DNA of 31,539 bases from a virus, in the IMG/VR virus record IMGVR_UViG_3300028025_000020, one strand, 5' to 3'. The notes under the pieces are model-generated. The model had not been told where the DNA came from and did not search any database. It saw nothing but the letters and a program-made list of their open reading frames with translations. Below, in pieces: positions 17,096-28,893 of the stretch (its first letter is position 1; each line of letters begins with the position of its first letter). A program made the translations under genes and the position numbers.

Positions 17096-17253
17096 AGAAT
17101 TTCAATAGTTACACGTTCTATATTTTCAAATAATATTACAACGTGATAATCTTCTTTTAAAGATAAATCATTCAAATATTCAAAAGTTCCGTCACCTATT
17201 TGTGTTAAAGGAACTCTTATTACTGCAATTGATTTTCTTTTTCTTATAAACAT
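17086..17253 (-). CDS. Small hypothetical protein (55 aa), not in the ORF track
   Basis: Hand-translated: MFIRKRKSIAVIRVPLTQIGDGTFEYLNDLSLKEDYHVVILFENIERVTIEILCK*. It overlaps both the glycosyltransferase stop and the terL start, and fills the only gap there. Confidence 0.4.
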   Translation of the reverse strand: MFIRKRKSIAVIRVPLTQIGDGTFEYLNDLSLKEDYHVVILFENIERVTIEILCK

Positions 17254-18260
17254 AATGTTTTTAAAAGTTCGTAGCGTGTTTGGTTAATGCTTTTTAAATT
17301 GTGATGTTGGTTGCAGTATTCTGTATTCAATTCACCAATGCTTAGTTTAGCCATACGGCAAAGACTATCATACCACGACTGCTCTGTATTGTAAGAAAAA
17401 ATAACTCCTTTGTTTCCCTCGTGTAGCGTATATGGTTTGACATTTGATACAATGATAGGTAAATTATAGGCTGCTGCTTCAACTATCTTTAATTCGCTTT
17501 TATATTGGTTGAAATTGCTTTCACATAATGGTGCAATACAAAAGTCAAATAGTGAATAAGAAGTTCCATAGTCTGTCGGTGTAGTTCCTCGAATAGTTTT
17601 AAACCAATCAGGACGATTAAAAATAGTTTCTCCCGTTATAGTTTTCTCGCACATTTGCCATTCGTGGCTTTCTGTGTGATATCCCGCCATATAAAAGATA
17701 GCGTCGTTTTCTTCACAGAATCTTTTAACGCTATTACCTACACGTTTTAAATCTTCAAGGTGAGTGATACCACCAACCCAACCGATAGTCAACTTCTCAT
17801 TCTTTGCTTTCTCAAAATTCCATTGGTCTTGGGTTAAATCTAAAGCATTCGGTAAAATAGTAATGTTGCTATTTATCTCTTTTACTTTCTCAGCAAGTAT
17901 TGAAGTTGAACAAGTGATATGAGTAGCGTTGTATATTGCATCCTTTGTCGCATTCTTAATCATTTGTTTGTACACCCTATATGCTGGATTTGATTTAGGC
18001 ACAACCCAATAGTCATCTACATCGCAAATTGTAGGTATGTTTAACGCTTTTAATTTTTCAAATATGTTATATTGTGCAACTGAAATCCATCTATTGAATA
18101 TAACTACATCGTAAACGCTAAAATCTATGTTAATCCACTCAGGTGGTTTTTGTGATACGTCTACTTGAATGTCGTATTCTCTTTGCATTGCAGCGTACGG
18201 GGTGAATAGTCTGTGAAAGCTCACCCCACTTGCTGAATCCATTAATACTAATATTCTCAT
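17244..18260 (-). CDS. GT-B fold glycosyltransferase (GT1/GT4-like)
   Basis: ORF-track frame, but I place the start at ATG 18260 (MRILVLMDSASG...), which forms an ATGA overlap with the upstream small ORF. Motifs GWVGGITHLEDL and SELKIVEAAAYNLPIIVSN match the C-terminal nucleotide-sugar-binding region of GT-B enzymes. Confidence 0.65.
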   Translation of the reverse strand: MRILVLMDSASGVSFHRLFTPYAAMQREYDIQVDVSQKPPEWINIDFSVYDVVIFNRWISVAQYNIFEKLKALNIPTICDVDDYWVVPKSNPAYRVYKQMIKNATKDAIYNATHITCSTSILAEKVKEINSNITILPNALDLTQDQWNFEKAKNEKLTIGWVGGITHLEDLKRVGNSVKRFCEENDAIFYMAGYHTESHEWQMCEKTITGETIFNRPDWFKTIRGTTPTDYGTSYSLFDFCIAPLCESNFNQYKSELKIVEAAAYNLPIIVSNVKPYTLHEGNKGVIFSYNTEQSWYDSLCRMAKLSIGELNTEYCNQHHNLKSINQTRYELLKTLCL

Positions 18261-18433
18261 TCGCCTGGTAATAAAGGAATGTGCATCCAATAAATAGGTG
18301 ATTTTAAAACGATGTCTGTTTGGAAATCGTACCACATTTCATCGTCATAATATGCAACCAAATTGTCAGACGTCAAAACTGGTCTGTCGTCGCTTGGTTT
18401 TTGTTCTGTTGTTAATCTCCACGATACCTTCAT
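18257..18433 (-). CDS. DUF551-like small protein (58 aa), not in the ORF track
   Basis: Hand-translated: MKVSWRLTTEQKPSDDRPVLTSDNLVAYYDDEMWYDFQTDIVLKSPIYWMHIPLLPGE*. ATGA overlaps at both ends. The pattern W..P...PVL...W....W..IP.LP recalls DUF551. Confidence 0.5.
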   Translation of the reverse strand: MKVSWRLTTEQKPSDDRPVLTSDNLVAYYDDEMWYDFQTDIVLKSPIYWMHIPLLPGE

Positions 18434-19243: not shown

Positions 19244-19513
19244 TTATTTCACGTTTTTTTTATTGTACTTCATAAAATTCAAATGTATTTCTTTTAACAT
19301 CTCTTTGTGTTGTTTTTTATCACCGTATTGAACGTGGTGACCTCTACAAAGACACATTAAGTTTTCAATCGTGTCTTCTTTTTTAGTGCCACCCATTCCA
19401 CGACATTCTATATGGTGAATATCGTTACCAGCATTGCCACAAATTTCACACGGAATCCAATCAGTTAAGTGATAGCCGAAATAGTCCATATAAATCTTTG
19501 TGTGTTTTTTCAT
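19244..19513 (-). CDS. HNH endonuclease
   Basis: ORF-track frame. I prefer the start at ATG 19513 (MKKHTKIY...), which forms an ATGA overlap with the methyltransferase stop. Motif CEICGNAGNDIHHIECRGMGG...NLMCLCRGHH. Confidence 0.75.
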   Translation of the reverse strand: MKKHTKIYMDYFGYHLTDWIPCEICGNAGNDIHHIECRGMGGTKKEDTIENLMCLCRGHHVQYGDKKQHKEMLKEIHLNFMKYNKKNVK

Positions 19514-20100
19514 TTTGTAAATAATAAACTCCAAGTTGTTGGTAAATCTACATTACTATGATATTTAAAACCACAGTCTTCAAATAGTTTTATCCATTCG
19601 TTTTCTTGTTTGATGTTAATATGCCCCCACTCAACGTCGAAATCTGTTTTGTGTGGTGTGCTACTAAAATGAAAATACTTGCATTCTAAGTTAGTTAAAA
19701 ATGGAATGAGTTTTTCATCTTCTATGTGTTCCATAACTTCAATAGACGATACCAATTCTTTTTCATCTATTTTAAGCGTGGTAAAGTCTCCTTGAATGAT
19801 TTTCTCTTTAGGAATATATTTACTGGCATACTCACAATGTAAGGGTGATAAGTCATAGTACTTGTTAAGGATATCACGCATTGCATAGGCATAGACACCC
19901 ATACCACCACCGCAGTCTGTGAACGATTTTGCATTGGTTATCTCTCGTATTTTTTTAGCCGTATTTTCAAACATAGATACATATCCTTGATTATCCATAT
20001 TAATCGAAAGTTTCATTTCGTGTTCGAAACATTTGGCATCATTCCAAGTTCCGTTAAAACTATTTCTTTCTGCGTTTAGGCTTTTGTTCATCGTCTGCAA
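19510..20100 (-). CDS. Class I SAM-dependent methyltransferase
   Basis: ORF track, 196 aa. Motif I FTDCGGGMGVY and post-motif SSIEVMEHIED. No DNA-methyltransferase catalytic motif (DPPY, or PC with ENV) is visible. Confidence 0.6.
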   Translation of the reverse strand: MQTMNKSLNAERNSFNGTWNDAKCFEHEMKLSINMDNQGYVSMFENTAKKIREITNAKSFTDCGGGMGVYAYAMRDILNKYYDLSPLHCEYASKYIPKEKIIQGDFTTLKIDEKELVSSIEVMEHIEDEKLIPFLTNLECKYFHFSSTPHKTDFDVEWGHINIKQENEWIKLFEDCGFKYHSNVDLPTTWSLLFTK

Positions 20101-21300: not shown

Positions 21301-21417
21301 CTATATTTTTTTCAATTCTACAAATTTATATCCATTTTTCTCTGCTTTTTTTTTATAATACTCAACTTCTTCTTCGGAATTTAGGCAGTACACTTCTTGG
21401 TACTTATTTTTTTCCAT
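21301..21417 (-). CDS. Possible small ORF (38 aa)
   Basis: Hand-translated: MEKNKYQEVYCLNSEEEVEYYKKKAEKNGYKFVELKKI*. It overlaps the upstream stop and fills the gap before the sigma gene. Confidence 0.3.
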   Translation of the reverse strand: MEKNKYQEVYCLNSEEEVEYYKKKAEKNGYKFVELKKI

Positions 21418-21853
21418 CACTAATTGATAGAAGGTTTTTTGCATCCTCATATATTGCAGTCTCGTTTTTGTATTTCATTTGTAGATAATCTGTGTAAGCG
21501 TTTACGCTATGTATAACGGTGCTATGGTCACGAATTAAAAAATTACCTACGTTCTTTAATGTGTAGTTAAAATATTTCACAGTAATATAGCAAAATAGTT
21601 GACGTGCAATAACTATTTCACGCTTTCTGTTTTTGGAAATAATGTCGTGAGGCATTATACCACTGGCATCACAAACCTTTTGCAAAATTTCTGTAAGTTC
21701 TTTGTTCTTGTTCATTTTGTGAATAGGGTTTATAATCATTTCCTTTAAGCGTTGTATTTCTTTTTGGTAGTTGCGTTCAGTTACTTCTACTTTGTTCTCT
21801 AAATATCGCACTTGACGGCGTTCTTTTAGATATTCTACATAATAGTCTATCAT
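21404..21853 (-). CDS. DnaA domain IV (C-terminal DNA-binding domain)-only protein
   Basis: ORF track, 149 aa. ISKNRKREIVIARQLFCYITVKYFNYTLKNVGNFLIRDHSTVIHSVNAY aligns with the DnaA domain IV signature (...R....ARQ.AMYL...T..SL..IG..FGGRDHTTV.HA...). No AAA+ domain is present. Confidence 0.75.
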   Translation of the reverse strand: MIDYYVEYLKERRQVRYLENKVEVTERNYQKEIQRLKEMIINPIHKMNKNKELTEILQKVCDASGIMPHDIISKNRKREIVIARQLFCYITVKYFNYTLKNVGNFLIRDHSTVIHSVNAYTDYLQMKYKNETAIYEDAKNLLSISDGKK

Positions 21854-21854
21854 A

Positions 21855-23036
21855 TTAAAATAAATTTATTTGTCTTTGTGAATAATCCTTATAAGCATCT
21901 GCTGAAAAAACTACAATATTATTTTCATATTCAATATATTCTCCAATATATTTATAAGATTTTGTTATACTTTCTTTTCTTAATTTCATACCATTATCTT
22001 TACCATCTTCTTTTAATTTATTATTTGTTTTTTTTATGCTTTCTATATTATTATTCTCTACAACTAATTTCCAATATTTTGTATTACGTTCCATTCCCAT
22101 AAATAAAGATGGATTACTTGTTTTAATATATAAATGTTTTTTAATTGATTTATACATTGCGCCAAAATAATTTAATACTTTTATTCCAATACCAAGTCCT
22201 TGATAATCAGGTAAAATAACCAAACGACTGATTCTAAAAGCATCTGATATTGTACCCGATGGCATTGGCAAAATAGCAATAAATCCAACTGGTTTATCAT
22301 TCCAAGTTATACAAAATGACTTTGCTGCTTTATTCAATTCTTGTGTTAAATAATGATGTTGTTTGAATATATTCCAAGTTTCATATCTGCATCGAAATAT
22401 CTGAAAGTCAATTTGTGGTCTTGATTGCCGAAGATAGTCGTGTTTTTCAACACGTCCCTTTAATGGTGAATATGTCCAATCAGGTAATAACCATTCCATA
22501 ATATCAAAATGACAAGATGCTAAAACAATTTTTTTATTCATTTTTCTAATATATTTTTGTAATGAATAAGACATAGATTTTGCGACATCTCTATCTACAA
22601 CACTTGTAAATTCATCAATTAATATTACATCATTTTCTTTTGCACTTGCAATTTTATATGCTAATTCAGCACGATATTGTTCTCCATTAGATAATAAATG
22701 AAATTGACGTAACCAAGTAGGAACAGAAGATAAACCAATTGCACTTAATAATAAACAAGCATCTTTTGGTTCTAAAAAATCAAAATTAGAAATTAGTGCT
22801 TTTTCTTTATCAAATTCAATTTTATTAATATCTCCAAATTGTTTTAATAATGATGTTTTGCCAGTGCCTGAACCACCATAAATTACCCCTATATTCCAAG
22901 TAAAATTTTTACATTCTCCAAAATTAATTGGTATTTCTACAATTGTTTCTTCTTTGTTTTGAATGTCAAATGAATCATAAATATAATTGGTATATTTATC
23001 ATTTTGAATCTTTTGTTTTAAAATTAATTTTCTCAT
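21855..23036 (-). CDS. ABC-type ATPase (single NBD) fused to a GNAT acetyltransferase domain
   Basis: ORF track, 393 aa. Walker A GGSGTGKTS (54-62), signature-like LSNGEQ (115-120), Walker B/D-loop VILIDEFTSVVD (137-148), H-loop LASCH (172-176), GNAT motif A RLVILPDYQGLGIGIKVL (271-288). Markedly lower GC than its neighbours. Confidence 0.7.
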   Translation of the reverse strand: MRKLILKQKIQNDKYTNYIYDSFDIQNKEETIVEIPINFGECKNFTWNIGVIYGGSGTGKTSLLKQFGDINKIEFDKEKALISNFDFLEPKDACLLLSAIGLSSVPTWLRQFHLLSNGEQYRAELAYKIASAKENDVILIDEFTSVVDRDVAKSMSYSLQKYIRKMNKKIVLASCHFDIMEWLLPDWTYSPLKGRVEKHDYLRQSRPQIDFQIFRCRYETWNIFKQHHYLTQELNKAAKSFCITWNDKPVGFIAILPMPSGTISDAFRISRLVILPDYQGLGIGIKVLNYFGAMYKSIKKHLYIKTSNPSLFMGMERNTKYWKLVVENNNIESIKKTNNKLKEDGKDNGMKLRKESITKSYKYIGEYIEYENNIVVFSADAYKDYSQRQINLF

Positions 23037-24262
23037 ATTATTTCTTTATATCGTGTGTACTTACCTTCAAATGATACTGGTACGGTAACGGTGCTCCCGT
23101 GTCGATTCTTTGCAACAATTAATTCTGCATCGGTTTCAACTTCAGTTTGTTCTTGTTGGTAGTATTGAGGTCTAAACGGAAACATAATTAAATCGGCATC
23201 TTGTTCTATTGAACCTGATTCACGCAAGTCTGAAAGCATTGGGCGTTTATCTGTTCGTTGTTCGCTATTTCTATTTAATTGAGCCAAACAAATAACGGTA
23301 ATGCCTAAATCCTTAGCAATTATTTTTAACGACCTTGAAATTTCTGCAACTTCTTGTTCTCGATTTTGTTTTGTACCTTTCACCAATTGCAAGTAATCAA
23401 TAATTAAAACATTTAAACCATACTTTGCCTTATGCAATTGTGCTTTTGCTCGTATATCGTTAATGGTTGCCTTTGTATCATCGTCTACATAGAAATCACT
23501 TTCAAGTTGATAAAGTGAACGTGAAATATGTTCGTGTTCAAAATCCTTTAAATTACCACCACGAATTTTATAATTCTCAATATTAGCAAAAAATGAAATA
23601 TAACGCTTTGCAAGTTCTTCGCTACTCATTTCAAGACTAATAAATAAAACTTTTGCGTGTGCGTATGCTCCAATTGTAAGTGATAAAGCCATTGCAGTCT
23701 TACCCGAACCAGGTCGACCAGCAATAATAACCAAGTTTCCGTTATTCCAACCACCAATATACTTGTCTAATAATCTCCAACCCGTAGAAATACCCATAAG
23801 TTTTTCACCTCGTTTCATTTGTTGTTCTAAATCGTCAATTACCTTTGCAGTTACCTTTGACATCGGCAATGGTTCACGTTCAATTGTTATTTGTGCTTCG
23901 GTTGTCATCTTTTGCAAATCGTTTAATATCACATCTAATGTGTTTAACGTGTCTAATTTGCTTAATTTTTCAATCAAACTACCTTTCTTATGCTCTATGT
24001 CTAATTCAAAAAGATAATGCTTTAAATCGGTGCTATATGAATAACTATTTGTAAATTGTGTTAACTCAAACGCTTTGCCTTTAAAGTTACGTGCCAAACT
24101 TACCAAGTCTATAGGGTTGTTATTAAGGTATGACATTTGCATAAAATCAATTATTTCTTTATTCCACCCATCAAACCAATAAGATTTGATTTTAGGTAAA
24201 AATACGTGTGTTGCTTTGTCTTGTATAAAGCATCCTATTATATAACTTTCTCTATTAATCAT
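23033..24262 (-). CDS. dnaB: Replicative DNA helicase (DnaB family)
   Basis: ORF track, 409 aa. Walker A GRPGSGKTAMALSL, Walker B LIIDYLQL, LAQLNR and SGSIEQDADLIMF motifs in canonical order. Confidence 0.85.
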   Translation of the reverse strand: MINRESYIIGCFIQDKATHVFLPKIKSYWFDGWNKEIIDFMQMSYLNNNPIDLVSLARNFKGKAFELTQFTNSYSYSTDLKHYLFELDIEHKKGSLIEKLSKLDTLNTLDVILNDLQKMTTEAQITIEREPLPMSKVTAKVIDDLEQQMKRGEKLMGISTGWRLLDKYIGGWNNGNLVIIAGRPGSGKTAMALSLTIGAYAHAKVLFISLEMSSEELAKRYISFFANIENYKIRGGNLKDFEHEHISRSLYQLESDFYVDDDTKATINDIRAKAQLHKAKYGLNVLIIDYLQLVKGTKQNREQEVAEISRSLKIIAKDLGITVICLAQLNRNSEQRTDKRPMLSDLRESGSIEQDADLIMFPFRPQYYQQEQTEVETDAELIVAKNRHGSTVTVPVSFEGKYTRYKEII

Positions 24263-24913: not shown

Positions 24914-25399
24914 TTATAACCCATTATTTTTTAAATCATAATTACTTTCAAGTTTAAAATTTATACCATCAATTTTAAAATCATAAGTATAAAAATCAAT
25001 TTGTCCACATCCTTGAACATTTAATAAATCAGTAATAAAACAAAAACTACCTTGTGTATCTAATTCTTTACCAATCAATTTAATATTGATATCAAATAAA
25101 TGTGATACATTTTTATTTTCTAAATAATTAATGACTCCTTTAACATAATTAAGAGATTGTAAAAACGAAGAAATACCAATTTTTTCTTTTTTTAATTCAA
25201 TAATAGTTACTTGTCCAGGGAAGAATAATTTTTTATCCTTATAATATGGGCGTGTGTAAGAAATTAAATCAGCAATCCCATAATTACCAATTTTTACTTG
25301 TCTCAAAAGTTTACCTTCAATTGATAAACCTCGTTTGTCTAATAAATCCATTCCAGATTCATAGATGATTGTTTCCAAATCTTTTTCTAAAAATTTCAT
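24914..25399 (-). CDS. PD-(D/E)XK nuclease-fold protein (NucS-like core)
   Basis: ORF-track frame, but the track start at 25420 is TTG inside a terminator stem. I place the start at ATG 25399 (MKFLEKDLETIIYE...). Core YGIADLISY...VTIIELKKEKI...SFLQSLNYVKG fits D...E.K plus the Q..Y motif. Confidence 0.55.
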   Translation of the reverse strand: MKFLEKDLETIIYESGMDLLDKRGLSIEGKLLRQVKIGNYGIADLISYTRPYYKDKKLFFPGQVTIIELKKEKIGISSFLQSLNYVKGVINYLENKNVSHLFDINIKLIGKELDTQGSFCFITDLLNVQGCGQIDFYTYDFKIDGINFKLESNYDLKNNGL

Positions 25400-25403
25400 A
25401 AAT

Positions 25404-25456
25404 AAAAAAAGCCCAACCAAAATAGTGCAGTTCAGGTGCGACTATTTTAATTGAGC
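25404..25456 (-). terminator. Strong Rho-independent terminator T3, 4 nt upstream of the nuclease gene ATG
   Basis: Minus-strand RNA GCUCAAUUAAAAUAGUCGCA-CCUGAAC-UGCACUAUUUUGGUUGGGC (~19 bp with one bulge and G.U pairs) followed by UUUUUUU, then AUUU AUG. Confidence 0.65.
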
Positions 25457-27338: not shown

Positions 27339-27519
27339 TTTCGTTTGCGTTATAAATACCTACATAAATAACATCTTCATCTTCACCGATGATAGCGTCG
27401 TTATTTCTAAATTGCTTAGTTGTTGAGATACAACCTACCGTTGCATCTAACATCTTAAATACCACCCACTCATAAGCATCAGCTTTAGTAGGGAAATTTT
27501 GAATTATTGTTTTTTTCAT
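27331..27519 (-). CDS. Hypothetical protein
   Basis: ORF track, 62 aa. Confidence 0.5.
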   Translation of the reverse strand: MKKTIIQNFPTKADAYEWVVFKMLDATVGCISTTKQFRNNDAIIGEDEDVIYVGIYNANENV

Positions 27520-27815
27520 ATCGTTTGTTTTTTAAATTGTATAGAATAACTTAATACATCTGAATGTTTATCTTCAAATCCAGCATTCTCATTATAATTA
27601 ACTTTATAAATAGTAAAGTTATTATTCAATAGGATATTTGAATATTTTTCTTTTTTTCTTGGTTTGCTTAAACCAATTAAAGTAATAACATCAAAATTTT
27701 GAATAATTGAATCAAATGAACTCATATTAAAATCTTGTGTAAAATGTTTAGTTATTAAGGTTATTTTTTTACCTATAACTAAATGTGAAATTTTTAAATT
27801 GTTTCCGTTTTCCAT
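27516..27815 (-). CDS. Hypothetical protein (very AT-rich orphan; first gene behind promoter E2)
   Basis: ORF-track frame. The track start at 27830 is GTG inside the -7 box, so I place the start at ATG 27815 (MENGNNLKISH...). Confidence 0.55.
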   Translation of the reverse strand: MENGNNLKISHLVIGKKITLITKHFTQDFNMSSFDSIIQNFDVITLIGLSKPRKKEKYSNILLNNNFTIYKVNYNENAGFEDKHSDVLSYSIQFKKQTI

Positions 27816-27819
27816 GATA

Positions 27820-27850
27820 CAAATATACACACGTTTTCTATATATGCAAA
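27820..27850 (-). promoter_or_regulatory. Host-type early promoter E2 (TTTG-N19-TATATTTG, 4 nt from the ATG)
   Basis: Minus-strand ATTGAAAATAAAGTTTGCATATATAGAAAACGTGTGTATATTTGTATCATG. Matches the Bacteroidota -33 TTTG / -7 TAnnTTTG consensus and aligns with E1. Confidence 0.6.
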
Positions 27851-27886: not shown

Positions 27887-28525
27887 TTACATTTCTTTGA
27901 CAATTGATTGCAATAGCTCATTTGCATAATATAGTTTTTCGTCAATGATTTCTTGCACATCTTCAAGTTCTATGTGGGCAATAAACAAGTTGTGTGAACC
28001 TGGCATTCTTTTGTCGTAACTAACAAAATAACCGAAGTCAACTGCACTTGCTATCATACCCAATTGCATTTGCCAGTAGTAATCTGCATGAATTTTTCCT
28101 AAATCTTCAGCACATTTGATTGACCTATTCTTTAAATGTATTCCACTATTAAAAGGATTCTTTATTTCGACCAAACAATTACCACCAAGTGCGTCAGGGC
28201 TATAACCTGAGTATTCACCATAGGGAATAAACGTGTAAGTCTCACCACCATAATAAGTGTAAAACTCATCTTGATTTTGTTGGAATACCTCAAACGCTTC
28301 CTTTTCGTTTTCAACTCCCCACGTCAATGCTTCGCCCCATATTGGTTTGCGAATGCCAGTTAATAGCTCACTTGCTTTGTCGTAAACAAATGACTTTGCC
28401 GTCTCTGAAAGGTACTCCGACTTGTTTCTCGGAGTACCCATTAATTTATGTATTTCACTCGCAGTAAATTTACCTTCTCTTAAAGATAACCATTTACTTT
28501 CGTCGGATGTTATAGTTATTTGCAT
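27887..28525 (-). CDS. YqaJ-like recombination exonuclease (PD-(D/E)XK)
   Basis: ORF track, 212 aa. N-terminal WLSLREGKFTASEIHKLMG and core YSPDALGG...LVEIKNP (D...E.K), typical of lambda-Exo/YqaJ-type viral exonucleases. Lies close to the Erf gene. Confidence 0.7.
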   Translation of the reverse strand: MQITITSDESKWLSLREGKFTASEIHKLMGTPRNKSEYLSETAKSFVYDKASELLTGIRKPIWGEALTWGVENEKEAFEVFQQNQDEFYTYYGGETYTFIPYGEYSGYSPDALGGNCLVEIKNPFNSGIHLKNRSIKCAEDLGKIHADYYWQMQLGMIASAVDFGYFVSYDKRMPGSHNLFIAHIELEDVQEIIDEKLYYANELLQSIVKEM

Positions 28526-28893
28526 AAAATGTTTTTTAAAATTTGTTGTTCTTGTGCTGAAAATTTATCTAATTCTTTTTGCAAACGGTCTATGTCTTTT
28601 TGTTTATGTATTTCCCAAAAACTTAATATATTTACTACACCATTTGCAGATGCAATATCTATTATTTTTTGGTCTATTCCTTGTTTTTCAAGTTCTGTTA
28701 AAATAGCACATAAACACGCTTCTAAAAATTGATTACGTTCTTTAAAATTTTTTAATTCAATTTTATCCATCAAATTATCTTTTGTAATATTTTTAAAATT
28801 TATTGTTGGTTCTTGTAAAAAGAAATCATTATTTATTTTACTCCACTCATCACATGAGTAGTTTTTTGAGTTTTGTGCTGATTCGCAAGGCAT
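28516..28893 (-). CDS. Hypothetical protein (very AT-rich orphan)
   Basis: ORF track, 125 aa. Confidence 0.55.
   Translation of the reverse strand: MPCESAQNSKNYSCDEWSKINNDFFLQEPTINFKNITKDNLMDKIELKNFKERNQFLEACLCAILTELEKQGIDQKIIDIASANGVVNILSFWEIHKQKDIDRLQKELDKFSAQEQQILKNILCK

Follow-up and report, generated by a model that had tools for sequence, protein, structure and literature searches.

An ABC-type ATPase/GNAT gene carried as a one-gene phage cassette: its family, its genomic context and a putative role in DNA-base acylation

The window, by which we mean the whole 31,539-nt stretch of viral DNA analysed here, carries a complete gene whose product joins an N-terminal ABC-type ATPase to a C-terminal GNAT acyltransferase domain. 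Judging from its genomic context, we lean with modest confidence towards an ATP-gated DNA-base acyltransferase used against restriction; in this reading we infer that the substrate is DNA, which group is transferred and that the mark counters restriction. A preliminary description, made from the letters alone, had proposed an ATP-gated acetyltransferase with a nucleic acid, tRNA or host protein as its target; the nucleic acid stands in general terms, whereas the context evidence points to DNA over tRNA or protein as the substrate.

The gene and its cassette

The features of the gene and its flanks are collected in Table 1. The preliminary description had read a 393-aa ORF with the motifs of both domains, RLVILPDYQGLGIG among them, and each of these lies at the residues assigned to it, far beyond what chance would give. 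The start ATG shares the sequence ATGA with the stop of dnaB, and the stop TAA lies 1 nt ahead of the ATG of the DnaA-C-like gene. In relatives with an empty slot, blastn homology ends at 23033 and restarts at 21854, the relative's own coordinates being contiguous, and in the closest relatives, devoid of the cassette, the ends of dnaB and the DnaA-C-like gene have 4 nt in common. The cassette is an acquired one consisting of exactly one ORF, with boundaries defined at base resolution, which bears out the earlier suggestion of an insert between dnaB and the DnaA-domain-IV gene; because the closest relatives do without the gene, it is dispensable cargo.

The low GC content noted earlier is real, although it had been slightly overstated: the gene has 25.3% GC, compared to 33.2% (and not 37%) for the helicase gene and 33.4% for the genome, and its GC3 of 10.7% is the lowest among 41 ORFs (z = -2.45). 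Other low-GC3 genes of the window (24914-25420, 27516-27830 and 28516-28893) do not travel together with the ABC/GNAT gene, the single homolog found for them being in L101, a phage without ABC/GNAT. The phage represented by the window is small (31.5 kb), of Bacteroidota type and not a jumbo phage.

Table 1. Positions of the ABC-ATPase/GNAT gene, its motifs, the cassette and the flanking genes in the window. A1 and A2 are family alignments of 10 and 47 members; L100, L102 and L103 are relatives compared by blastn.
Feature	Residues	Position	Strand	Evidence
ABC-ATPase/GNAT gene, complete	393 aa + stop	21855..23036	minus	ORF call, ATG start; phrog_11143 E 8e-135
Inserted cassette		21855..23032	minus	blastn breakpoints vs L100, L102, L103; GC 25.3%, GC3 10.7%
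ABC-type nucleotide-binding domain	~1-205	22422..23036	minus	PDB profile matches, Foldseek, secondary structure
Walker A / P-loop GGSGTGKTS	54-62	22851..22877	minus	G54, S56, G57, G59, K60 invariant
ABC signature-like LSNGEQ	115-120	22677..22694	minus	L115, S116, G118 invariant
Walker B + D-loop ILIDEFTSVVD	138-148	22593..22625	minus	D141, E142, S145, V147, D148 invariant
H-loop SCH	174-176	22509..22517	minus	H176 invariant
GNAT acyltransferase domain	~206-369	21930..22421	minus	Pfam Acetyltransf_1, _7, _10; Foldseek 1y9k, 4e2a
Conserved HHYL	227-230	22347..22358	minus	alignments A1, A2
GNAT motif A / acyl-CoA pyrophosphate loop RLVILPDYQGLGIG	271-284	22185..22226	minus	alignments A1, A2
C-terminal tail	370-393	21858..21929	minus	predicted disordered (pLDDT <50 for aa 371-393); not conserved in family alignment
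DnaB-type replicative helicase, 5' flank, backbone gene outside cassette		23033..24262	minus	DnaB_C E 8e-89
DnaA C-terminal (domain IV)-like HTH protein, 3' flank, backbone gene outside cassette		21404..21853	minus	Bac_DnaA_C E 1.8e-19

Domain architecture and family

The N-terminal half is a single, shortened nucleotide-binding domain (NBD), with only ~56 residues from Walker A to the signature, a truncated helical subdomain and neither Zn nor insertion domains; the LSNGEQ signature stands 25 residues ahead of Walker B. The family profile matched ABC ATPases of the PDB with a best E of 9e-10 (8s7v_K, a chain labelled OpuCA; the ABC-F protein ExpZ; UvrA; EcfA), and an AlphaFold2 model of the 393-aa protein (pLDDT 81, pTM 0.73) gave Foldseek matches in the PDB to the NBDs of MalK, PotA, MacB and MJ0796 (E 8e-8 to 3e-6). 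From Walker A to the signature, Q is frequent only at position 84 (Q in 25/47, N in 22/47), the putative place of the canonical Q-loop Gln; the clade of the window protein has Asn84 there, a point against the reading preferred here. The matches of this half to Pfam ATPase_2 and Bac_DnaA are sub-threshold P-loop cross-matches and do not speak for an ORC- or DnaA-type ATPase.

The C-terminal half exceeds the Pfam cut-offs for Acetyltransf_1 (27.8 bits, cut-off 20.7) and Acetyltransf_10 (23.8 bits, cut-off 23.6), its Foldseek match to 1y9k has a target TM-score of 0.65, and the domain carries a net charge of +12 (pI 9.7). Pfam, PDB profiles and the AlphaFold2 model searched with Foldseek agree on the ABC-type NBD plus GNAT assignment that the preliminary description had put forward. 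QGLGIG inside RLVILPDYQGLGIG fits the Q/R-x-x-G-x-G/A pattern and is placed by the model between a strand (266-274) and a helix (283-297).

Conservation was followed in two alignments, one of 10 members with identities of 29-61% (A1) and the other of 47 members (A2). All motif residues are invariant in A1, and all except G280 and G282 of motif A (at least 90%) are also invariant in A2, R271, V273, P276 and G284 being the motif A residues invariant in both; that this motif is kept in all members would imply acyl-CoA binding and catalysis. Moreover, W221, F224, H228 and Y229 are all invariant in A2, and of these F224 and Y229 show no variation in A1 either, where H228 reaches at least 90% conservation; the four residues form a candidate acceptor-site aromatic cluster. 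The catalytic motifs of both halves are kept among members with identities as low as 29-37%, and by their sequences both the ATPase and the GNAT look catalytically competent. As for the C-terminal tail, compared in analogy to the variable insert that ParB-independent dioxygenases carry, the length distributions of ParB-less and ParB-linked copies overlap (medians 13 and 11 aa).

The match to phrog_11143 covers residues 3-369, and the family comprises at least 837 clusters at 50% identity (E<=1e-30), with more than 566 matches in bacterial and archaeal genomes taken at one genome per species; its hosts include Actinobacteria, Bacteroidota, Spirochaetes and Planctomycetota. ABC and GNAT are invariably fused or adjacent in it, and tandem ABC-ABC-GNAT fusions exist, which supports an NBD dimer as the working unit. 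A homolog in Tenacibaculum phage pT24 shares 48% identity over 99% of the query (E 2e-117) with identical domain order, one NCBI homolog record is titled 'ABC-type ATPase fused to a predicted acetyltransferase domain', and the one strong match in a viral fold library is an unannotated family member.

The original prediction of phage DNA-base acyl modification by a 'GNAT coupled with an ABC ATPase' reportedly goes back to Iyer, Zhang, Burroughs & Aravind (2013, NAR 41:7635). Iyer et al. (2021, Viruses 13:63; PMC7824862) predict DNA-base acyl modification by a GNAT coupled with an ABC ATPase and name pT24; their prediction is computational, cites the 2013 NAR paper of the same group and agrees, independently, with the reading preferred here. 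Literature searches (phage ABC+GNAT, phage N4-acetyl DNA, phrog_11143, COG2401) found no experiments on any family member. The novelty that the preliminary description had claimed for the architecture is lost, since this is already catalogued and its prediction already published; the window gene is an ordinary family member.

Genomic context, alternatives and proposed function

The slot between dnaB and the DnaA-C-like gene was compared in 47 relatives. It is empty in 11, where the DnaA-C-like gene directly follows dnaB, and it holds HNH endonucleases in 12, C5 DNA methylases in 8 (PF00145, E 7e-47), TET-associated DNA glycosyltransferases (TAGT) in 6 (PF20691, E 6e-51), unknowns in 5, ABC/GNAT in 3 and N6/N4 DNA methylases in 2. 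The presence of HNH endonucleases and unknowns means that the slot position is no proof of a DNA-modifying role. With only 3/47 slots holding the gene, and the family typically found after a ParB-like gene and before the terminase, the link to a replication module drawn in the preliminary description does not extend to the family.

The survey of phage genomes for the same fusion and its conserved neighbours, which had been suggested there, identified a ParB-like gene 5' of ABC/GNAT in 38/92 viral loci, almost always overlapping its start, and directly 5' in 56/64 prophage loci. In three phages that infect different hosts the ParB-like partner cleared the threshold of Pfam ParB_N, and our own ParB HMM revealed single-chain fusions of ParB and ABC/GNAT in 9/149 top family representatives, identifying the ~200-aa N-terminal extensions of fused members for which Pfam gave no match. 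The usual order, seen in many viral and prophage loci, is ParB, ABC/GNAT, small gene, TerL and portal; 29 viral loci, and prophages too, have ABC/GNAT just 5' of TerS and TerL. The window copy and those of jumbo phages lie at a distance from the terminase and have no ParB. A PF00551 formyltransferase gene follows ABC/GNAT in Gordonia, Burkholderia and Porphyromonas phages. Cultured phages with an ABC/GNAT gene include Nonlabens P12024S, Lactococcus P335, Pasteurella Pmp13, Leptospira LE3/LE4, Burkholderia phiE255 and Gordonia Axumite, the last of which combines it with ParB and the formyltransferase.

HMMs built from the operon partners detected no ParB-like gene among all window ORFs of at least 40 aa, position -1 being occupied by dnaB, and these HMMs together with Pfam detected no formyltransferase gene in the whole window. 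Since the window copy has neither partner, a mechanism derived from the ParB-linked clade may not transfer to it. For ParB, pairing or fusion with DNA-modifying enzymes is established: it acts as an activator of phage thymine dioxygenases on dsDNA (PMC13229309, PNAS 2026), and ParB-DNA methyltransferase is a frequent phage fusion (PMC12704722, PNAS 2025). A PF00551 enzyme is a predicted dPreQ1 formyltransferase in phage DNA (PMC10516641).

An ATP-gated GNAT acetylating a host protein (RNA polymerase, nucleoid or defence) or a phage protein (ParB or terminase) is in our judgement unlikely; ParB would then only bring the enzyme to DNA-bound targets, and ParB fusions could tether it to chromatin-like ones. 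A model for this is Rac, the GNAT of phiKMV that acetylates the alpha subunit of RNA polymerase. For phage GNATs in general, proteins are the substrates usually assumed (PMC7824862, PMC5512222), and the nearest matches of the present domain are generic, namely small-molecule or putative acetyltransferases in both fold and sequence comparisons, together with a weak RimI match in NCBIfam. But a protein target accounts neither for the positional equivalence with DNA methylases and TAGT nor for the formyltransferase neighbour or the invariably attached clamp-type ABC ATPase, and the spread of hosts from Actinobacteria to Planctomycetota argues against a single host-specific protein.

We consider it improbable that RNA is the substrate, with ATP driving cytidine N4-acetylation or acetylation of aminoacyl-tRNA, like TmcA/NAT10 or the GNAT toxins, for translation takeover or protection. 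ABC-F ribosome-binding ATPases are among the top sequence matches, and formyltransferases of the PF00551 Pfam family act on Met-tRNA. TmcA (2zpa, E 2e-6) is the only Foldseek PDB match aligned over more columns (~424-427) than the query length, but with very poor TM-scores (0.26/0.17), and the ATPase of TmcA is of another class, RecD-like. Neither TmcA-specific nor tRNA-binding domains were detected, Pfam giving no RecD-like helicase, DUF1726, GNAT_acetyltr_2 or tRNA-binding family at E<=1. Moreover, the slot-mates are DNA enzymes, and DNA is also what the ParB-like DNA-clamp partner and the fusions with ParB in one chain suggest as the target.

Less probable again is an accessory role in packaging or segregation, in which ParB and an SMC-like ABC ATPase would prepare concatemeric DNA for the terminase by organising or marking it, and the GNAT would be structural or regulatory. 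ParB loads SMC-type ABC ATPases, and the gene order running from ParB to the portal, kept in so many loci, would suit this role; however, the coiled coil is absent, motif A is kept in all members (4/6 key residues invariant and 2/6 at least 90%), the window and jumbo-phage copies stand apart from terminase and ParB, and the gene is cargo that the closest relatives lack. Finally, an ATP-binding subunit of an ABC transporter, or an auxiliary metabolic gene, as database names (hemin, siderophore, lipoprotein transporter ATPase) and the structural likeness to transporter NBDs would have it, is effectively refuted by context, there being no permease or binding-protein gene in the window, in agreement with the preliminary description, or in ~170 related loci, while the NBD has a truncated helical subdomain and, in the window clade, Asn at the putative position of the Q-loop Gln, a GNAT is invariably fused or adjacent and the partner is ParB.

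Returning to the DNA-base acyltransferase, the product would be a soluble two-domain enzyme of a family widespread in phages and prophages. Its ABC ATPase is predicted to form ATP-sandwich dimers in which Walker A and LSNGE of opposite subunits face each other; such dimers may serve as a nucleotide-gated clamp or switch on DNA. The GNAT would bind acyl-CoA, most simply acetyl-CoA, and move the acyl group onto the exocyclic amine of a DNA base after replication, and the resulting mark would shield phage DNA from restriction or other DNA-targeting defences. In most members a ParB-like partner, 5' or fused, probably recruits or activates the enzyme on dsDNA, and in a few the adduct may be processed further by a formyltransferase of PurN type. 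The copy in the window is a ParB-less 'solo' form: it came in as a single low-GC gene, and the cargo slot that it occupies is filled in related phages mainly with DNA methyltransferases, DNA glycosyltransferases and HNH endonucleases.

More tentatively, the family as a whole may provide DNA bases with a hitherto undescribed N-acyl mark of acetyl or aminoacyl type, set in an ATP-dependent manner, formylated further in some phages and ParB clamp-guided in most, across thousands of phages and prophages of many phyla, including prophages of Streptococcus pyogenes, with the window phage carrying a ParB-independent form. To our knowledge, no N-acyl base has been reported in the DNA of any phage carrying ABC/GNAT. 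If the prediction is true, natural DNA modification would gain a new chemical class with this mark, and the enzyme would be the first ABC-ATPase-driven DNA-base transferase; a very common phage gene would write a new DNA mark, with a bearing on phage escape from restriction and on sequencing and cloning of marked DNA, and could provide a tool enzyme for ATP-gated DNA acylation. The window offers a clean natural experiment: because the cassette is a single gene with exact ends, relatives lack it, and elsewhere the slot holds methylases or glycosyltransferases, the hypothesis can be tested by isogenic comparisons.

Comparison with known systems

Several candidates were set aside. PADLOC gave only short matches in the P-loop/signature region to mad3, mad8 and AbiLi (E 4e-6 to 2e-4); a GNAT toxin-antitoxin of the TacT/AtaT kind was rejected, as the GNAT is fused to an ATPase and the neighbours are backbone genes also present without the cassette; and the 'abc1' gene of PMC12373910 is unrelated, its name referring to the P22 Abc proteins. 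Membership of the Mom family was likewise rejected (hhalign against Mu Mom, probability 0.75%, E 0.075). Mu Mom, which modifies adenine in DNA, nevertheless has the GNAT fold and acts on its base shortly ahead of packaging, comparable to the base modification proposed for ABC/GNAT, although it has no ATPase domain, and in the Mu-like phage phiE255 ABC/GNAT lies after the tail-fibre genes, recalling the position of mom in Mu.

TmcA/NAT10, to which the preliminary description had compared the protein, also place a P-loop ATPase before a GNAT in one chain and drive ATP-dependent acetylation of a nucleobase amine. The ATPase of TmcA is, however, a RecD-like SF1 and not an ABC enzyme, and TmcA possesses DUF1726 and a tRNA-binding domain; the comparison survives as an analogy and not as a homology of the whole architecture. 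The soluble nucleic-acid ABC ATPases UvrA, ABC-F/ExpZ and ABCE1 resemble the family in being top PDB profile matches and in having no membrane partner, and some family members have tandem NBDs as these do, whereas the window protein combines a single NBD with an enzymatic GNAT.

The 5mYOX176/ParB176 dioxygenases (PMC13229309) and the ParB-methyltransferase fusions (PMC12704722) likewise pair a phage enzyme with a ParB N-domain partner, and the dioxygenases also comprise ParB-dependent and ParB-independent subclasses, comparable to ABC/GNAT with its ParB-linked loci and the solo copy of the window; the ABC and GNAT catalytic domains are unrelated to those enzymes, and the ParB dependence of ABC/GNAT is putative. 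The closest counterpart is the predicted system of the pT24 type, so far a published prediction only, which belongs to the identical family and has the two domains in identical order; pT24 is a jumbo phage, whereas the window copy stands alone as a cassette in a Bacteroidota-type phage of 31.5 kb.

Insertion of the ABC/GNAT cassette

The phage genome in the window is nearly complete and has all its major genes on the minus strand, and a family search retrieved a protein identical to its ABC/GNAT product on a contig of 31,553 bp. The ORF of the preliminary description was recovered, as was every ABC and GNAT motif quoted there, each at the residues listed below. Pfam also bore out both flanks that had been named, a DnaB-type helicase gene (dnaB) upstream (DnaB_C, E 8e-89) and a gene for a DnaA-C-terminal-like HTH protein downstream (Bac_DnaA_C, E 1.8e-19). 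The start codon of ABC/GNAT overlaps the stop of dnaB in the sequence ATGA, and one base separates its TAA stop from the ATG of the DnaA-C-like gene.

Coordinates of the ABC/GNAT gene, its protein motifs and other features of the window
Feature	Position	Details
ABC/GNAT gene	21855..23036 (-)	393 aa
dnaB	23033..24262	
DnaA-C-like gene	21404..21853	
Walker A	aa 54-62	GGSGTGKTS
Signature-like motif	aa 115-120	LSNGEQ
Walker B/D-loop	aa 138-148	ILIDEFTSVVD
H-loop	aa 174-176	SCH
GNAT motif A	aa 271-284	RLVILPDYQGLGIG
Group-1 glycosyltransferase	17244-18335 (-)	phrog_7162, E 6e-53; Pfam Glyco_trans_1_4
HNH gene	19244-19534	
Methyltransferase-like ORF	19510-20100 (-)	196 aa; class-I SAM-methyltransferase-like motif DCGGGMG
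Orphan gene	24914-25420 (-)	168 aa; GC 23.1%, GC3 11.8%
Small ORF	27516-27830 (-)	GC3 12.4%
Small ORF	28516-28893 (-)	GC3 14.3%

The GC anomaly noticed earlier is real (25.3% in the gene against 33.4% in the genome), although the helicase measured 33.2% and not the 37% first given; the GC3 of the gene, 10.7%, is the lowest among the 41 ORFs of the window (z = -2.45). Alignment breakpoints proved at base resolution the proposal that the gene was acquired as a cassette. We fetched 80 viral contigs encoding relatives of the window DnaB, and those nearest to the window (83-84% protein identity) have no gene between dnaB and the DnaA-C-like gene, which share an overlap of 4 nt. Nucleotide homology with a close relative runs from 24481 to 23033 at 84% identity and then from 21854 to 20700 at 91-93%, the coordinates of the relative being contiguous across the break; the insert is therefore 21855-23032, exactly one ORF. 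Most relatives carrying ABC/GNAT have it at 26-30% GC, matching the resident genome; Nonlabens phage P12024S, like the window, has a copy that is out of line with its genome. A lower-GC phage lineage looks to be the source of the window copy.

The order dnaB to DnaA-C-like gene was found in 47 of the fetched relatives, and this junction is a gene-exchange hot spot: it is empty in 11 and holds an HNH endonuclease (HNH_3 with two small genes) in 12, a C5-cytosine DNA methylase (PF00145, E 7e-47) in eight, a TET-associated glycosyltransferase (TAGT; PF20691, E 6e-51) with a small 87-132 aa gene in six, unknown proteins of 264-334 aa in five, ABC/GNAT in three and an N6/N4 DNA methylase (PF01555) in two. 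ABC/GNAT thus occupies a cargo slot mainly of DNA-modifying enzymes and homing-type nucleases. No TET/JBP gene was seen beside the TAGT genes within the fetched flanks.

Other genes of the window were also observed. The orphan gene, as extreme in composition as the cassette, lies directly upstream of a DnaD-like gene; its product carries, by eye, a PD-(D/E)xK-like D...ELK motif, had no Pfam or PHROG match, and its only homolog found was on one of the fetched contigs (L101:1960-2466). Upstream of the DnaD-like gene the closest relatives (L098, L100, L102, L103) have a ParB-like gene (phrog_12305, E 1e-35), and the site appears to be another slot with variable cargo. The two small ORFs, with no homologs among the fetched loci, Pfam or PHROGs, are probably recent cargo from a low-GC source. 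The glycosyltransferase gene is unusually placed, between TerS-like/HNH genes and the large terminase, and the methyltransferase-like ORF, which overlaps the HNH gene by 25 nt and had no Pfam or PHROG match, may encode a second modification enzyme.

Domain architecture and conservation

The profile and AlphaFold/fold searches suggested in the preliminary description place an ABC-type NBD in the N-terminal half and a GNAT fold in the C-terminal half. Pfam gave generic P-loop and ABC_tran matches for the former and GNAT families above threshold at residues 216-299; phrog_11143 ('unknown function') matches the whole protein (PHROGs, E 8e-135). A profile built from 47 family members matched ABC ATPases in the PDB (best E 9e-10), a mixture of soluble ABCs (ABC-F ExpZ, UvrA, ABCE1) and transporter NBDs. 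Against the AlphaFold2 model (pLDDT 81.2, pTM 0.73, disorder limited to residues 371-393) ABC NBDs scored E 8e-8, and for GNATs the target TM-score was 0.65. BFVD returned one strong match only, the homolog of Leptospira phage LE4, which aligns from end to end (TM 0.77/0.82) and so shows the arrangement of the domains to be conserved.

Residues invariant in a 10-member alignment (29-61% identity) are Lys60 (Walker A), L115/S116/G118 (signature), D141/E142 (Walker B), S145/V147/D148/R149 and H176 in the ABC domain, and R271/V273/P276/G280/G282/G284 in the GNAT domain; in a 47-member alignment all remain invariant except G280 and G282, which are at least 90% conserved. The NBD is compact, with ~56 residues from Walker A to signature, and at the candidate Q-loop position 84 the ParB-linked clade has Gln and the clade of the window Asn. 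The GNAT domain is basic (net +12, pI 9.7) and conserves an aromatic cluster of W221, F224, H228 and Y229.

Family spread and gene partners

Surveying phages for the fusion, another earlier suggestion, revealed a large family with recurrent ParB-like and terminase neighbours. Clusters at 90% identity numbered over 5,500 for a single query and over 6,900 for a profile; at 50% identity at least 837 fell within E<=1e-30 and 2,662 within E<=1e-10. The 83 GenBank phage records with ABC/GNAT have hosts among Bacteroidota (including Porphyromonas), Gammaproteobacteria, Burkholderia, Leptospira, Firmicutes and Actinobacteria; Streptococcus pyogenes prophages 315.4 and phiNIH1.1 carry it, and bacterial and archaeal genomes, one per species, gave more than 566 matches.

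Clustering of the flanking genes of 92 viral loci without prior bias yielded two recurrent neighbours, a ~180-aa same-strand protein at -1 and the large terminase (TerL) at about +2. By HMMs the former is present in 38 of the 92 loci, nearly always overlapping the start of ABC/GNAT, and TerL lies downstream in 29, usually ~350 nt away. The -1 protein is ParB-like by its sequence: in Lactococcus P335, an Oenococcus phage and an Arthrobacter phage its score lies above the Pfam threshold for ParB_N, that in Leptospira LE4 is weak, and its consensus keeps NPR and GNxRxKA motifs. A ParB-like gene is directly upstream in 56/64 informative loci of cellular genomes, which are prophages, as ABC/GNAT is succeeded by a small gene, then by TerL and portal. 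In Gordonia phages, Burkholderia phiE255 and Porphyromonas phages a PF00551 formyltransferase gene comes after ABC/GNAT. Neither a ParB-like nor a formyltransferase gene was found in the window genome, whose copy belongs to a ParB-less clade with those of Nonlabens P12024S and jumbo or T4-like phages.

The top 149 family representatives include nine ParB-ABC-GNAT fusions in one chain, five proteins of ABC-ABC-GNAT architecture and two with large insertions placed precisely at Walker A or the signature: an intein with Hint and LAGLIDADG domains at the former (P0404) and 430 aa at the latter (P0361). Inteins usually reside in proteins of DNA metabolism. In P0448, a family member of 900 aa, the core is preceded by a further, partial ABC domain and by a Tudor domain that is PTM/DIR17-like (PF21743, E 3e-7).

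The single chain is not universal (loci L004, L007, L013 and L009; Streptococcus prophages H50-H61): phages of Firmicutes encode ABC and GNAT in two distinct ORFs, adjacent or overlapping, and in Tenacibaculum phage pT24 the split may come from a frameshift or an error in sequencing. The two halves can evidently function without being joined in one chain. Tiny ORFs stand directly 5' of ABC/GNAT in formyltransferase-linked loci that have no full ParB gene, namely gp28 of Burkholderia phiE255 (L002, 54 aa; ParB-HMM E 5e-5) and a Porphyromonas 'acr candidate' (L005, 42 aa); both cluster by BLAST with the ParB-like partners and may be a ParB remnant or a minimal interacting peptide.

In one NCBI record a homolog is called 'ABC-type ATPase fused to a predicted acetyltransferase domain', presumably the name of COG2401. 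Several other labels are probably misannotations: gene 3 of Gordonia phage Axumite (L003:1805-2452), labelled 'tRNA-methyltransferase', encodes a formyltransferase of PF00551; the 'DNA modification methylase' 5' of ABC/GNAT in an Oenococcus phage (L007:4276-4887) matches only ParB_N in Pfam, with no methylase domain, and the same label recurs at this position in Streptococcus Javan prophages; ABC halves are called siderophore, hemin or lipoprotein transporters.

Proposed activity and comparison with known systems

The best-supported reading of ABC/GNAT, which we hold with a little better than even confidence, is an ATP-gated DNA-base acyltransferase. A nucleic acid, tRNA or host protein had been proposed as acceptor, a reasonable guess that the gene context narrows towards DNA. 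ABC domains dimerise around ATP, and the motifs and tandem-NBD fusions suggest that the ABC domain would form such an ATP-bound dimer. The dimer would engage DNA, with the help of a ParB-like clamp in most family members and alone in the window enzyme; the GNAT domain would pass an acyl group from acyl-CoA to an exocyclic amine of a base, the aromatic cluster possibly holding the flipped base, and restriction-resistant DNA would result. Three independent lines of context, the slot-mates, the ParB partners and the formyltransferase neighbours, point to these later steps.

Acetylation of a protein is unlikely given that context, even with generic enzymes as the nearest GNAT matches. Acetylation of RNA or tRNA in the manner of TmcA is decidedly improbable, an analogy in which the TmcA-specific domains are absent: TmcA (2zpa) was the sole PDB match whose aligned columns (about 424-427) exceed the query length, and its TM-scores against the model are poor (0.26/0.17). 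A non-catalytic packaging accessory, in a family with TerL so often downstream, is very improbable because GNAT motif A is conserved and the gene dispensable; a transporter subunit can practically be dismissed, no membrane partner having turned up in the window or in about 170 related loci.

The DNA-base acyltransferase reading has parallels in other phage systems. On dsDNA, thymine dioxygenases that act after replication are activated by phage ParB homologs, and these enzymes fall into ParB-dependent and ParB-independent subclasses (PMC13229309); DNA methyltransferases are frequent fusion partners of phage ParB N-domains, and a ParB-acetyltransferase fusion binds GTP (PMC12704722). The fdPreQ1 detected in phage DNA is predicted to be the product of a PF00551 formyltransferase (PMC10516641). 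Literature searches found no experimental study of the ABC/GNAT family, which together with its size and the unusually clean comparative setting in this phage group gives the case its value. The preliminary description was mistaken in regarding the architecture as undescribed: the family is known and widespread, and Iyer et al. have already predicted DNA-base acylation by an ABC ATPase-coupled GNAT, with phage pT24 as an example (PMC7824862), the relevant passage of their article citing their own 2013 NAR paper for the prediction. Over 99% of its length the window protein shares 48% identity with that of pT24, and it is a new, ParB-less member of this known family.
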